From Candidatus Thorarchaeota archaeon (GTDB lineage: Archaea; Asgardarchaeota; Thorarchaeia; Thorarchaeales; Thorarchaeaceae): a stretch of DNA of 47,586 nt. The position numbers and the translations under genes were made by a program. Positions within the stretch are counted from its first letter, which is position 1. The number at the start of each line of letters is the position of its first letter. The stretch covers positions 1 through 47,586 of the forward strand of contig JAWAQK010000015.1 in NCBI GenBank assembly GCA_038893995.1, in the 5' to 3' direction. The notes beneath the pieces are model-generated. The model searched no databases and was not told the DNA's origin. It worked only from the letters and a program-made list of their open reading frames with translations. Of this stretch, positions 5,803 through 22,316 are shown in pieces.

Positions 5803-8718
5803 ATGAAGATGATCATGAGTGAACTCCATAGAATAGAAACCAAATGGCAAAGACGGTGGCGCAGAGACAGGGTATTTGAGGCGGATCCGGATCCGTCTAG
5901 ACCCAAGTTCTTCCTGACAGTACCATACCCCTATACAAATGGCGCCCTTCATGTAGGTCATGGGCGCACGTACACAGTTGGGGATCTGATCGCACGTTAT
6001 AAGAGAATGCGGGGCTATAACGTACTCTTTCCGATGGCTTCACACATGACGGGGACCCCGATACAGGGCATGGTAGAGAGACTGAAGGCGGGAGACAGAG
6101 ATGCAATCGAGCTGTACAAGCGGGATCTCCGAGTGTATCTGAAGACTGAAGAGGAAGTCAATGCACAACTGGCGAAGTTCACGGACCCGTGGGTGACTGC
6201 AAGGTTCTTCGCAGACGCCATCTCGTCTGACTTCAATGCACTAGGATATAGCATCGACTGGAGGAGACGATTCACAACTGGAGATGGGATATACAACAAG
6301 TTCATCGAGTGGCAGTACGGAAAGTTCAAGGAAAAGGGGTACATAAGGCAGGGAAACTATCCGCTCCTGTATTGCCCCAGGGACAAGAATCCAGTCGGGG
6401 AGGATGATCTGCTTGAGGGGAGTTCTGCAAAGATCAAGGAGTTCACGGCCATAAAGTTTGGGTTCGAAGATGGATATATCGTTCCTGCAACTCTGAGACC
6501 TGAGACCATCTTCGGTGTGACGAACATGTGGGTTAACCCGTCTGCGGACTATGTCTGGGCCAAGGTCAACGGAGAGAAGTGGGTCGTCTCAGAGGCTGCA
6601 GTCGAGAAGCTGAGGCTACAGGCCAAGAATGTGGAGGTGATCGAGAGATTCAAGGGATCCAGACTAGTCAACAAGAGGTTCAGGGCAGTCCATGACGAAC
6701 ACGAGGGACTGATCCTGCCCGCGGACTTTGTCGATCCCAACAATGCCACGGGTGTGGTCTACTCGGTCCCTGCACACGCACCGTTTGACTATGTCGCACT
6801 TCGTGACCTGTGGGAGGACCCAACAAGTTTGGCTCAATATGGCATCACCCCCGAGGATATTAGAGGAATATTACCAATAGGAATAATCGACATCAAGGGA
6901 TATGGCGAGTTTCCCGCAAAGGAGGAGGTAGAGAAGAGGGGAATAAGGAGTCAACACGAGGTCCAGGCCCTTGAGGAGGCAACTCAGGAGATCTACAAGG
7001 CCGAGTTTTACGGGGGCGTCATGAAGAACAACTGTGGCGAGTTTGCGGGTAGACCTATAAGAGATGCGAAGGATGAAGTCGTGTCGTGGATGAGGTCGAA
7101 TGGTCGTTGTGACGTATTCTACGAGCCTGACATCAGACCCGTAATCTGCAAGTGCGGTGCCGAGGTCCAAGTGGGCGTGTTTGCGGGTCAGTGGTTCCTC
7201 GACTATCAGAGCCCAGGATGGAAAGACCTGGCACGTAGGGCACTTGACTCGATGACCATAGTTCCCGATGTGTACAGGCGGCTCTTCGAGGCAACATTTG
7301 ACTGGCTCACACAGAGACCATGTGCGAGGAAGAGGGGCATCGGCACACGCTTGCCATTCGATCCAGACTGGATAATAGAGTCACTCTCAGACTCTACTAT
7401 CTACATGGCGTTCTACACTATTGCCCACATAATCACTGCAAATCGGATCAAGCCAGAGAATCTGGTACCTGAGGTATTCGACTTCGTATTTCTCGACAAG
7501 GGCAAGGTGGAGGACGTTGCGACTGCATCGGGAATCAGTGCAGACATACTGAGGGCCATGCACGATGAGTTCGCGTACTGGTACCCGAATGACCAGCGTC
7601 ACACTGCACCGTCACATATCTCGAATCATCTCAGTTTTGCCATATTCCACCACGTGGCGATCTTCCCAGAGAGACACTGGCTGAGGTGCATCAGTCTGAA
7701 CGAACATGTCAACATGGAAGGGGCCAAGATGAGCAAGAGCAAGGGAAACACCATTCCCCTTGCGGAGATTCCGGTGAAGTATGGCGCCGATGTGTATCGC
7801 ACCTACACACTCTCAGCAGCCGAACCAGGTACATTGATGGACTGGCGTGAGAAGGAGATACCCACTGTACGAACCAGACTACAACAGTTCTTCGATACAG
7901 TCCTGAAATACGGTAGAAAGACGCCAAGGGTATATCGCGAGTCGGATCGACCCACATTGGCGACCAGATGGATCCTGTCAAGGGTGAACTCAATCATTGA
8001 GGCCTGCACTGACTGTATTGAGAGGTTCAAGATCCGAGACTATGCCATCCTCGCATCCTCCGAGATGGAGCGCACCATCAGCCGGTACCTCAGGATGGGC
8101 GACGTGCCACGTCAGGAGAGAGATGGGACGATGGCGTATGTCTGTGACATATGGGTCAGACTGATGGCACCCATGACACCTCATCTGTCAGAGGAGCTCT
8201 GGTCAAGGATGAAACGAGAGGGATACGTCTCCCTTGCCCGTTGGCCAGAGGCGGACAAGTCCCTCATAGACACGAGAATTGAGATCGCCCAGAATGTTGT
8301 TGACTCAACCATTGGTGACGTCCGAGAGATAGTGAGGCTCCTCAGGAACAAGAGTGTGAGCAGGGTACATCTCTATGTGGCCCCGCAGTGGATGTTTGAT
8401 GCAATGAATAGCATCCGTGATGCGCAGCTGCCACTGGTTATGAGCTCTATCATGAAACACCTGATGAGCCAGTCAAAGTTCCGCGAACATGGTAAGGAGC
8501 TTAGTAGGATAGTCGAGAGGATAGCCAAGGAGAACGGTCTCTGGCCATATTCTGAGAACGCGGAGCTTGAACTCGAAACGATGAGAAACGCTTCAGGCTA
8601 CATGTCCTCACAACTCGGTTTCGAAGTGATCGTACATAGTGCCGAGTCACCCGAGTACGATCCTCAGGGCAAGTCGGCGTTGGCCCTGCCAGGGCGGGTG
8701 TCTGTCCTGCTCGAATAG
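5803..8718 (+). CDS. leuS: Leucine--tRNA ligase (archaeal/eukaryotic type)
   Basis: PYPYTNGALHVGH, ATLRPET editing domain, WIIESLSDSTIY, KMSKS. Confidence 0.98.
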   Translation: MKMIMSELHRIETKWQRRWRRDRVFEADPDPSRPKFFLTVPYPYTNGALHVGHGRTYTVGDLIARYKRMRGYNVLFPMASHMTGTPIQGMVERLKAGDRDAIELYKRDLRVYLKTEEEVNAQLAKFTDPWVTARFFADAISSDFNALGYSIDWRRRFTTGDGIYNKFIEWQYGKFKEKGYIRQGNYPLLYCPRDKNPVGEDDLLEGSSAKIKEFTAIKFGFEDGYIVPATLRPETIFGVTNMWVNPSADYVWAKVNGEKWVVSEAAVEKLRLQAKNVEVIERFKGSRLVNKRFRAVHDEHEGLILPADFVDPNNATGVVYSVPAHAPFDYVALRDLWEDPTSLAQYGITPEDIRGILPIGIIDIKGYGEFPAKEEVEKRGIRSQHEVQALEEATQEIYKAEFYGGVMKNNCGEFAGRPIRDAKDEVVSWMRSNGRCDVFYEPDIRPVICKCGAEVQVGVFAGQWFLDYQSPGWKDLARRALDSMTIVPDVYRRLFEATFDWLTQRPCARKRGIGTRLPFDPDWIIESLSDSTIYMAFYTIAHIITANRIKPENLVPEVFDFVFLDKGKVEDVATASGISADILRAMHDEFAYWYPNDQRHTAPSHISNHLSFAIFHHVAIFPERHWLRCISLNEHVNMEGAKMSKSKGNTIPLAEIPVKYGADVYRTYTLSAAEPGTLMDWREKEIPTVRTRLQQFFDTVLKYGRKTPRVYRESDRPTLATRWILSRVNSIIEACTDCIERFKIRDYAILASSEMERTISRYLRMGDVPRQERDGTMAYVCDIWVRLMAPMTPHLSEELWSRMKREGYVSLARWPEADKSLIDTRIEIAQNVVDSTIGDVREIVRLLRNKSVSRVHLYVAPQWMFDAMNSIRDAQLPLVMSSIMKHLMSQSKFREHGKELSRIVERIAKENGLWPYSENAELELETMRNASGYMSSQLGFEVIVHSAESPEYDPQGKSALALPGRVSVLLE

Positions 8719-18924: not shown

Positions 18925-20535
18925 TCAGCTCTCCTCGATCACTATTCCCTCTACCAGCTCCGGTGTCAAAACCCGGGTGACCCGGACCGAGACAATCCTG
19001 CCTGCTGAGAAACCACCAGGAACCGTCATGATGGGCCCATCTCCGAGAGGATAGACCATTGTGTAACCGTGTCGGGATGATGACATCTCAGCTGCAATTC
19101 CTCTGACCACTTTGCCTATCTGTTCGGTCTTCCGTGCCTTGTTAAGACGTCTGGCGACCTCCTGAAGTACCCTACTTGACTGGTCCCTGGGAGAAGGGGG
19201 AGATGAGCCCTGGAATGCAGACCCCGGAAGTGGTCTGAAACCGTAGAGGACAACTCGTTCCATCCCTGCTTGATACAGACGATGCATCATGTCCAAAGTC
19301 ATTCTCGTGGTCTCGGGGGACTCGCCAGGTAACCCATAGATGAGGTACACAAATGGGCGTAGACCATGCTTCTTGGCCACGGACACCGCATGTAATACAT
19401 CCTCGGGGCTGCCATACTTACCGATTGCTCTCATATGAGGACCAGACCCGGTTTCAAGGCCAATGTGTATTGACGTGTCGCCAAGGATCCCGGAGATGAC
19501 CCTGACCACATCCTCGGTGAGCAGACAGGCCTTGATGTTCTCGATACCAATATGACATAGACCGTTCATGACACTAGGAAGACGAACCAATGCCTCCAAC
19601 AGCCTCCTGATCTCGCGGAGGTTTGCAGGAGGGTGACATGGGTCCGTGAGCGGCTGGGGGCCCCTATGGAAGTCGAGGAAATCGGGAGCCGCCAGGACCA
19701 CGCGATGAACTCCCGCCTCCAACAGGAGACGCACCTCTTCGACCACAGACTCAACACTCCTGCTTCTTGGGGGCCCCCATACCGCAGGAACGCTGCAGAA
19801 GCCACATCCAGGTGGTATGCCTTCGGGACAGCGAATGCGCTCTTTCAGGTCCTCTGACTCGCAGCCACCACACTCAACACATTGACGCCCATCTTGCAAT
19901 CTGAGCCGGGGACGCATGAAGTTGGAACAACCGCGTACGACCTCAACATAGACTCTTGATGCCTGATAGGAAGGATAGTCAACTATGCGATGAACAGACG
20001 GTCTTAGGTTCGATATTGATTCTTCAGGGATCAGTTCTCGGGGGGGCGTTATGCGGACCTGGCCCCCGTCAATGTACCCCAGCCCATCAATACTCGATAG
20101 GTCGGGGGAACTGTCCTCAAAGAAGCCGGACGACACGAGTTCACTGAGTGTGATCTCTCCTTCCCCAATGACCACCACATCGGGCCGAACTTCATTCAGG
20201 ACCAGCGACGGTGCAGATGAGATCGGCCCTCCGACTAGGATGCGACCCGTACGCCTCAGACGTTTCCACAGATCGACAACTCTACGTACCGTTGGGAGAT
20301 CCATTGACATGGCACTCAATGCAAGGTGGCTGAACGACCTGATCCGGTTTGGCGTTGAGATGATGTCCTCTGCTCGTGCAATCCTGCACGGAATGTCATG
20401 TCGCTCCATGACTCCAGCCACCGCCCTTGGTCCTACGCCAATCACGTCACGAGAGCTGGACCGTCTTCCATCACCTGATGCCAATGCATCTACAATCAGT
20501 ACTCCGTCGATCATGGGGAGCACCTTGAACGACAT
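18925..20535 (-). CDS. B12-binding-domain radical SAM protein with a C-terminal TRAM-like domain
   Basis: ILVGGP, VVVIGEGE, EVVRGC...GCGFC, PRSRS, GLETGS, YGLPGE. Confidence 0.88.
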   Translation of the reverse strand: MSFKVLPMIDGVLIVDALASGDGRRSSSRDVIGVGPRAVAGVMERHDIPCRIARAEDIISTPNRIRSFSHLALSAMSMDLPTVRRVVDLWKRLRRTGRILVGGPISSAPSLVLNEVRPDVVVIGEGEITLSELVSSGFFEDSSPDLSSIDGLGYIDGGQVRITPPRELIPEESISNLRPSVHRIVDYPSYQASRVYVEVVRGCSNFMRPRLRLQDGRQCVECGGCESEDLKERIRCPEGIPPGCGFCSVPAVWGPPRSRSVESVVEEVRLLLEAGVHRVVLAAPDFLDFHRGPQPLTDPCHPPANLREIRRLLEALVRLPSVMNGLCHIGIENIKACLLTEDVVRVISGILGDTSIHIGLETGSGPHMRAIGKYGSPEDVLHAVSVAKKHGLRPFVYLIYGLPGESPETTRMTLDMMHRLYQAGMERVVLYGFRPLPGSAFQGSSPPSPRDQSSRVLQEVARRLNKARKTEQIGKVVRGIAAEMSSSRHGYTMVYPLGDGPIMTVPGGFSAGRIVSVRVTRVLTPELVEGIVIEES

Positions 20536-20623
20536 GTCCAGTGTAGGTTAACTTATATGCCACACTGGTTCACTAGATGCACAGCTTGAAGCTACAAAAG
20601 CCAACTGGAAGGAGCAAGTAGAT

Positions 20624-20950
20624 CTGTCGGAAACAGGTGGTATTTGCCCAAAGTGTGGTCTTCCAACTGACCTTTGTGTCTGTGAGACCATAGCACAGGA
20701 AGAAACCAGAATAGTGGTGAGTATTGAACGTCGAAAGTGGGGTCGTCTGACGACTGTGATCACGGGGTTCGACAAGAGCATTGACCTCGCCGAGATGGCT
20801 GCGAAGCTAAAGACCAAGCTCGCATGTGGAGGTGCAGCAAAGCATGGCCACATAGAGCTGCAGGGAGACCACCGTGGAGTCATCATGGACGTCCTCACAG
20901 GTCTGGGATTCTCTCCAGACATGATAAGAGTGGACTGGACCAATGTCTGA
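20624..20950 (+). CDS. sui1: Translation initiation factor aIF1 (SUI1/eIF1), probable CTG start
   Basis: ICPKCGLPTDLCVCE zinc knuckle in frame upstream of the ORF-track start; LKTKLACGG and IELQGDH; GGAG SD at 20611-20614. Confidence 0.92.
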   Translation: MSETGGICPKCGLPTDLCVCETIAQEETRIVVSIERRKWGRLTTVITGFDKSIDLAEMAAKLKTKLACGGAAKHGHIELQGDHRGVIMDVLTGLGFSPDMIRVDWTNV

Positions 20951-21177: not shown

Positions 21178-22143
21178 CTAGTCCAGATCATCCCCGAGAG
21201 TTCCAATGTCAAGTACGCGGACTATCTCCTTGTATCTGTTGCGGACAGTCACCTCTGTGACCCTGGCGACCTCTGCGATTCGCCGCTGAGTCCGACGGTC
21301 GTCCATCATGATAGATGCCACGTATATGGCGGCAGCGGCGAGCCCCAGAGGATCGCGTCCTATCGTGAGTCCCTTCTCTCGACTCTGGTTGAGTATCTCG
21401 ATTGTCCTGAGCTTCACCTGGCTGGAGAGGGACAATTCTGTGGCAAATCTGTTGATGTAGTCCACTGGGTTTGACAACGGGACTATGACACCAAGATTCC
21501 TCAGGAGTAGACGGTAGCATTGACCCAGTTTCTTCTTGTCGACTCTAGAGGCATCAGCGATCTCGTCGAGAGGACGGGGAGTCTGGTTTATCCTGCATGC
21601 GGCATAGAGAGTGGCCGCCACCATGGCCTCGATAGACCGCCCCCGGACAAGCTTGCGAGCTATTGACTTTCTGTACAGTATCGCAGCGAGCTCACGCACA
21701 GGAGCGGTGAGCCCCAGCTGGGACGCAAGACGCTCCAGCTCAGACATCGCCTGAACCAAGTTCCGGTCTGTCGAACTGTGCACTCTTGACCGTATCTGCC
21801 ACTTTCTTAGCCTGTATATCTCAGATCTGCGAGTCGGTGTCAAACGTCTCCCCGATAGATCCCTGTCACGCCAATCAATTACCGTAGACAGGCCCTTGTC
21901 ATGAATCGTCTGCCTGACCGGAGACCCGACTCGACTCCTGGAGTTCATCTCCTCAGATGTGAAGGCCCTCCATTCAGGACCGGTCTCTATCCTGTGATCA
22001 GACAGGACAAGACCACATCTCGAGCACGCACGTTCGCCCCGAGTCTGATCCTCGACTATGTATTGGGATCCACACTCAGGACATACATTCCCCTCAGACT
22101 GCACTCTCTCACGTGCAGGCCTGATTGGGTCAGACCCAGACAT
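21178..22143 (-). CDS. tfb: Transcription initiation factor IIB (TFB), paralogue 2
   Basis: CPECGS...CSRCG, GPEWRAF, HDKGLST, two cyclin repeats, VTEVTVRNRYK. Confidence 0.97.
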   Translation of the reverse strand: MSGSDPIRPARERVQSEGNVCPECGSQYIVEDQTRGERACSRCGLVLSDHRIETGPEWRAFTSEEMNSRSRVGSPVRQTIHDKGLSTVIDWRDRDLSGRRLTPTRRSEIYRLRKWQIRSRVHSSTDRNLVQAMSELERLASQLGLTAPVRELAAILYRKSIARKLVRGRSIEAMVAATLYAACRINQTPRPLDEIADASRVDKKKLGQCYRLLLRNLGVIVPLSNPVDYINRFATELSLSSQVKLRTIEILNQSREKGLTIGRDPLGLAAAAIYVASIMMDDRRTQRRIAEVARVTEVTVRNRYKEIVRVLDIGTLGDDLD

Positions 22144-22316
22144 GTCGTACCTCCCCTACAAGAGCAACCGGCGGTTCTCGCATCCAGTGGTGTTGATGCT
22201 CAGCCTCAATACCCGAATGCGCAATGTAACTAGATTAACAGAGCTTCTTTTAATGATTGTGGGGATTTAGCCTGGAATTCTGTGGTTGGAAACCTGAGGA
22301 AACTTGGATCTTGTGA

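Follow-up and report, generated by a model that had tools for sequence, protein, structure and literature searches.

The aIF1 gene of a Thorarchaeota archaeon very probably starts at a near-cognate CUG codon, through which the factor may limit its own synthesis

In a window of 47,586 nt from a Candidatus Thorarchaeota archaeon (the whole stretch of DNA analysed), the gene coding for the translation initiation factor aIF1 contains no ATG, GTG or TTG codon from which the complete protein could be started. The conservation of the gene among its relatives indicates that translation very probably begins at a CUG codon, located at positions 20624–20626 of the forward strand. An aIF1 made from such a codon might control its own level, and our analysis inclines slightly towards the complete statement, namely a CUG start plus feedback autoregulation by aIF1. 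The promoter, leader, Shine-Dalgarno (SD) sequence, CUG start and full-length product are supported by the anatomy of the locus and by conservation, while the feedback is what we infer.

Full-length SUI1/aIF1 is encoded in the open frame 20552–20950 (+ strand), whose translation reads LSETGGICPKCGLPTDLCVCETIAQEE... The Pfam SUI1 profile (PF01253) matched residues 52–120 of this frame (62.5 bits versus a cut-off of 25.5; E 5e-17), which correspond to positions 20705–20911. When the whole genome was searched, aIF1, located on contig C15, scored 63.6 bits against the Pfam gathering cut-off of 25.5 and was the single SUI1 match in this 2.33-Mb metagenome-assembled genome (MAG), which is 91% complete. 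One aIF1 orthologue each was found in 41 of 41 relatives. The gene in the window is the organism's housekeeping copy rather than a paralogue. Read from the CTG, the coding sequence (20624–20950, + strand) has 108 codons and is followed by a TGA stop. The CTG-initiated protein is colinear, over its full length and with the zinc knuckle included, with the solved 102-residue aIF1 of M. jannaschii (4mo0), residues 4–101 of the 4mo0 chain aligning with residues 7–103 of the query (E 2.4e-30). Both neighbouring genes lie on the minus strand: a B12-binding radical SAM gene (18925–20547) is divergent from aIF1, and the gene for TFB (21178–22155) is convergent with it. By this arrangement aIF1 is monocistronic, with an upstream region of its own.

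The original prediction stated that no in-frame ATG, GTG or TTG exists between a TAA at 20549–20551 and a GTG at 20714. Re-reading the sequence and listing the codons showed both the stop and the gap (20552–20713) to be as claimed, the GTG at 20714–20716 being the earliest canonical codon in frame. The conserved zinc-knuckle N-terminus said to be encoded in the gap is there as well, as seen in the translation and in the alignment to 4mo0: the knuckle, CPKCGLPTDLCVC (CxxC...CxC), occupies positions 20645–20683 (+ strand), 5′ of the first canonical in-frame start, and aligns from residue 4 of the M. jannaschii protein onward. Chance alone could produce a 54-codon gap in one sequence, and the meaning of this gap therefore rests on other evidence, i.e. 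on the presence of the conserved zinc knuckle inside it and on the retention of the CTG in 14 other distinct orthologues.

Orthologous loci were drawn from species-representative genomes, and the removal of duplicates left 77 distinct loci from Thorarchaeia. The codon homologous to that at 20624 was GTG in 61 of them, CTG in 15 and ATT in one (locus L016); ATG and TTG were found in none. The 14 CTG loci other than that of the window belong to at least six further genera. The trait of the lineage as a whole is thus a 'non-AUG' rather than a 'CUG' start, since most orthologues use GTG, a standard archaeal start codon.

The codon following the homologous position specified serine in 74 of the 77 loci, and it was written in all six possible ways (AGC, AGT, TCT, TCA, TCG and TCC). 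This points to selection on the amino acid, and therefore to a codon that is translated. The residues after the serine (D/E-E-G-G-I-C) were conserved with synonymous variation in the 77 loci; the N-terminal peptide predicted from the CTG is (M)SETGGICPK in the window and (M)SDEGGICPNCGLP... in relatives. Immediately upstream, codons −1, −2 and −3 showed no conserved amino acid and accounted, in that order, for 6, 10 and 6 stop codons (22 in total; n = 77), and in nine of the 15 CTG loci an in-frame stop lay at most two codons upstream. Since amino-acid conservation begins right after the homologous codon, with unconserved or stop codons 5′ of it, translation very probably starts at that codon. 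Of the knuckle cysteines, the first two were invariant in 77 of 77 orthologues; the other two had been built into the search motif by which the orthologues were gathered.

Metagenome contigs provided further copies of the Thorarchaeia type, of which six had CTG at the start position, 33 GTG, one TTG and none ATG; the only metagenome copy starting with ATG was a non-Thorarchaeia sequence of 53% identity. An exact-pattern scan of these contigs for an independent assembly of the same species gave no match, and the relatives recovered in a protein-based scan were at most 80% identical. The sole Thorarchaeia-type copy with TTG at the start position was locus L202, on metagenome contig Ga0209013_10189135.

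Upstream of the CTG, the TTATAT listed in the original prediction at 20553–20558 is part of a TATA-like box, ACTTATATG (20551–20559, + strand), that is conserved and is a putative promoter element. In nearly all Thorarchaeia orthologues this box was found 55–76 nt upstream of the start, most commonly at 69–70 nt. Its position suggests a leader of ∼40 nt, so that an in-frame ATA at 20555 would sit in the promoter and outside the mRNA. The SD sequence AGGAG (20610–20614, + strand) lies 9 nt before the CTG and is complementary to the 3′-end of the organism's own 16S rRNA (GGATCACCTCCT, contig C68); the predicted coordinates of its GGAG core (20611–20614), of the CTG and of the 9-nt spacing proved correct. 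GGAG was present 8–12 nt upstream of the homologous start in 75 of the 77 orthologues, while genome-wide it peaks 8–10 nt before starts. Together with the 5′ limit of conservation, which falls at the CTG, this lends strong support to the CTG initiation originally predicted. The aIF1 start site is thus suboptimal while its other translation signals are good.

The proposed mechanism is as follows. The gene would be transcribed from its own TATA-type promoter into a monocistronic mRNA with a leader of ∼40 nt and no conserved structure. The five-base SD AGGAG would place the 30S subunit over the near-cognate CUG at 20624, where translation would start, presumably with Met-tRNAi by analogy with other near-cognate starts, and the product would be a normal 108-residue aIF1 with its zinc knuckle. 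(ARAGORN identified 13 tRNAs in the MAG, or 28 with introns permitted, and a single tRNA-Met; the tRNA set of the MAG is too incomplete to be informative.) In vitro, the aIF1 of S. solfataricus destabilises or discriminates against complexes on AUU and other non-AUG mRNAs, according to the accounts given in PMC4705826 and PMC6237735, and that of P. abyssi supports initiation fidelity (PMC6237735, PMC4705826). Orthology with these two proteins and with eukaryotic eIF1 suggests that the aIF1 of the window also discriminates against non-canonical starts. A factor that rejects non-AUG codons should control, through its own level, initiation at its own CUG: by destabilising non-AUG complexes, abundant aIF1 would reduce initiation at this codon and scarce aIF1 would allow more of it. 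The resulting negative feedback would also hold start-codon stringency constant. Autoregulation of this kind can reasonably be inferred in that it fits the lack of ATG in all 77 loci, the recurrence of weak starts in other Asgard families and the union of a strong SD with a weak codon.

The main alternative to this feedback is an unregulated weak start. The CUG would be real, but it would either set only a fixed, modest rate of synthesis or be a tolerated, near-neutral variant of GUG, and aIF1 would exert no feedback on it. We regard this explanation as rather unlikely, although several observations agree with it. The starts of other initiation factors are equally fixed in Thorarchaeia: aIF2-beta started with ATG in 18 of 18 genomes, and aIF1A with TTG in 18 of 18, 6 nt after GGAGG (consensus TGGAGGATTATT-TTG). 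In the genome studied here, aIF2-alpha, aIF2-beta and aIF5B start with ATG, and aIF2-gamma and aIF1A with TTG, the latter on the minus strand of contig C52 at ∼8404–8700 (locus L249, with its relatives among L247–L266). The starts of these control genes are therefore gene-specific and stable, so that less weight can be given to the absence of ATG from aIF1, part of which may reflect a general inertia of start codons. The aIF1 leader, moreover, revealed neither a regulatory RNA structure nor a conserved upstream ORF. RNAalifold gave a consensus of only −0.94 kcal/mol for the leader and start region of 24 sequences, the fold of the window's own sequence gave z = −0.84, and an out-of-frame upstream ORF of 11 codons (TTG...TAG, 20586–20621, + strand), which ends 2 nt before the CTG, showed no conservation in relatives and is probably incidental.

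As a side observation, aIF1A, the second start-selection factor, also has a fixed non-AUG start, although many genes of this genome start with TTG.

The use of start codons across the genome bears on the same question. For ∼1,970 long, non-overlapping ORFs, the frequency of SD motifs before each codon was measured within the 5′ zone. The SD-linked excess, a crude estimate from one MAG, was about +176 to +241 for ATG, +96 to +105 for TTG, +4 to +23 for GTG and −3 to −5 for CTG, and ATT and ATA were found behind SD motifs at background level. An earlier version of the test, run on all ORFs of at least 100 codons, showed no codon to be enriched, internal codons having swamped the signal. The absence of an SD-linked excess of CTG indicates that this codon does not serve generally as a start here, and GTG starts appear to be rare. 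That neither GTG nor CTG is enriched behind SD motifs argues against the aIF1 start being an ordinary, tolerated one. ATG and TTG were each enriched about twofold behind SD motifs and GTG hardly at all, a pattern that looks unusual; TTG may be the main alternative start codon of this organism.

SD-preceded codons were also screened for those lacking a canonical start within 25 codons. No surplus of other CTG-initiated genes was detected, SD plus CTG being at background (2/76 versus 97/3291 overall). The same screen did reveal a double ABC ATPase of 527 residues (contig C16, ∼20564, + strand; locus L166:765–2348) in which no canonical start precedes the Walker A motif. The first ATG comes only downstream of that motif, and the ABC_tran domain starts at residue 21 of the frame. 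The sequence suggests that translation of this ATPase most likely starts at an ATC directly behind a TGA, 7 nt after AGGAGG, and may be coupled to that of the upstream gene. A gene that appears to start at AUC is in keeping with a fixed, unregulated rate at aIF1 too, since it means that near-cognate initiation is not unique to aIF1 and is possible elsewhere, if rare.

The history of the aIF1 start speaks more for selection against ATG. A maximum-likelihood tree was built from the aIF1 coding sequences with the start codon left out; because it rests on a gene of ∼320 nt and many of its forks are unresolved, the numbers of changes are minimum estimates. This tree requires GTG and CTG to have replaced one another at least three times and ATT to have arisen once (the first base thus changes four times), against 11–20 changes at neighbouring synonymous sites. 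ATG never arises, and every change of the start leads to, or stays within, the weak codons. The suboptimal start of aIF1 is conserved among the Thorarchaeia relatives and has not been replaced by an optimal codon. A start that has moved among GTG, CTG and ATT but never to ATG, and the joining of a conserved promoter and a strong, well-spaced SD to the weakest class of start codon, both count against an unregulated rate.

The sample of non-Thorarchaeia sequences comprised 46 aIF1 loci from 22 other Asgard families. Seven of these loci lacked an ATG, GTG or TTG start, and in each a near-cognate codon was present at SD distance: CTG in two genomes of family f4 (L029 and L142), ATA, 9 nt after AGGAGG, in three genomes of families f8 and f16 (L028, L129 and L130), and probably ATT in the Loki-type family f9 and in genus g60 of family f14 (L163 and L164). 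Non-canonical aIF1 starts thus appear to have arisen repeatedly, and independently in at least five other Asgard families, which again disfavours an unregulated start. They are not universal: about 85% of the sampled non-Thorarchaeia genes had ordinary starts, ATG in the majority and GTG or TTG in the rest, so that the weak-start feedback, if real, is not universal either.

The remaining alternatives concern the position of the start rather than its regulation. It is very unlikely that ribosomes enter aIF1 elsewhere, be it by an out-of-frame start followed by a frameshift, by reinitiation after the upstream ORF 20586–20621, or at an in-frame ATT at 20642. The proximity of the upstream ORF to the CTG would suit reinitiation, a few CTG loci carry an ATG or GTG 7 nt upstream in another frame, and the S. 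solfataricus aIF1 gene was once annotated as frameshifted; this −1 frameshift annotation was, however, put down to a sequencing error (PMC8211752). Neither the upstream ORF nor the codon at −7 is conserved; both are lineage-specific, and the −7 codon is separated from the SD by only 3 nt. Leaders devoid of any canonical codon were found in five of the 16 CTG or ATT loci. The ATT at 20642, for its part, stands 27 nt away from the SD and follows five codons whose amino acids are conserved.

Two further readings, both extremely improbable, are that aIF1 begins at the GTG at 20714, without its zinc knuckle, and that either the CTG arose from faulty sequencing or assembly or the gene is a pseudogene. 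The former is favoured in that the 5′ part of the gene offers no other ATG, GTG or TTG in frame, and that a standard gene caller would pick this one; but the 30 codons 5′ of it are conserved as protein with synonymous variation (SETGGICPK...TIAQEE) and align to residues 4–33 of 4mo0, the two cysteines invariant in the 77 loci lie upstream of it, no SD precedes it, and the codon itself specifies an internal valine of a conserved RIxV strand. The case put forward in the original prediction as its own refutation, a protein starting at 20714, was therefore not upheld. The latter draws on the sequence coming from a single MAG, with no near-identical contig in the metagenome scan, and is countered by the CTG at the same position in the 14 other distinct genome loci and six metagenome contigs, and by an intact frame in what is the only aIF1 of the genome. 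Conservation, the SD, the position of the promoter and the metagenome copies together place the start at 20624, and speak strongly against the GTG at 20714, the ATT at 20642 or a fault in the assembly. One practical consequence is that gene callers restricted to ATG, GTG and TTG will truncate the essential aIF1 at 20714 or miss it, with loss of the zinc knuckle.

The proposed self-limitation of aIF1 would give archaea an equivalent of what infC, with its AUU start, does in bacteria and of what eIF1, with its AUG in poor context, does in eukaryotes. The translational autorepression of infC through its AUU start has been demonstrated experimentally in bacteria, whereas the feedback on aIF1 is a proposal. 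In both genes a factor that rejects non-canonical starts is made from a non-canonical start of its own, placed behind a normal ribosome-binding site, and in both the odd codon is conserved across relatives; that of locus L016 and of some other Asgard families is even ATT or ATA. The folds of IF3 and aIF1 are nevertheless unrelated, and the aIF1 codon is CUG (GUG in relatives) where that of infC is AUU. IF3 represses AUU and AUA starts, as cited in PMC9723500. eIF1 represses its own poor-context AUG (Ivanov et al. 2010, PNAS, as cited in PMC6237735). It is an orthologue of aIF1 with the same SUI1 fold, its mRNA also has a conserved suboptimal initiation site, and the proposed logic is shared: more factor, stricter selection, less factor. 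The difference is that the weakness of eIF1 resides in the context of a scanned AUG, and that of the Thorarchaeota aIF1 in the codon itself, on an SD-led mRNA. The aIF1 proteins of M. jannaschii (4mo0), P. abyssi (5zcy) and S. solfataricus are of the same family and length as that described here, and the CxxC...CxC zinc knuckle is common to the Thorarchaeota and M. jannaschii proteins. Cryo-EM entries of 30S initiation complexes with aIF1 are also available (5jb3 and 5jbh).

Full-text literature searches retrieved no report of a near-cognate start codon, or of autoregulation, in an aIF1 gene from archaea. Bacteria and eukaryotes already provide examples of the principle; a version of it at an archaeal aIF1 gene would be new in the literature searched. 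Bacteria, through infC, and eukaryotes, through eIF1, tune stringency by means of a deliberately poor start on a fidelity factor; the picture would be completed by a conserved near-cognate aIF1 start in the Asgard archaea, to which eukaryotes are more closely related than to any other known group, and the idea is directly testable in the archaeal in vitro initiation systems that already exist. A broader and somewhat doubtful extension, which we put forward tentatively, is that aIF1 has repeatedly come under weak-start control in archaea, as a widespread circuit by which stringency is set globally, the weak start being CUG or GUG in Thorarchaeia and AUA, AUU or CUG in other Asgard families; in Thorarchaeia it would be paired with the always UUG-started aIF1A gene. 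In that case the autoregulatory loop of eIF1 would have had a functional forerunner among the archaea related to eukaryotes, and one weak-start logic would serve all three domains.

The first ATG of the divergent radical SAM/B12-binding gene (minus strand) lies at 20533–20535, ∼16 nt from the TATA-like box of aIF1. It may be speculated that one near-symmetrical TATA element serves both genes, in which case the mRNA of the radical SAM gene would be leaderless.
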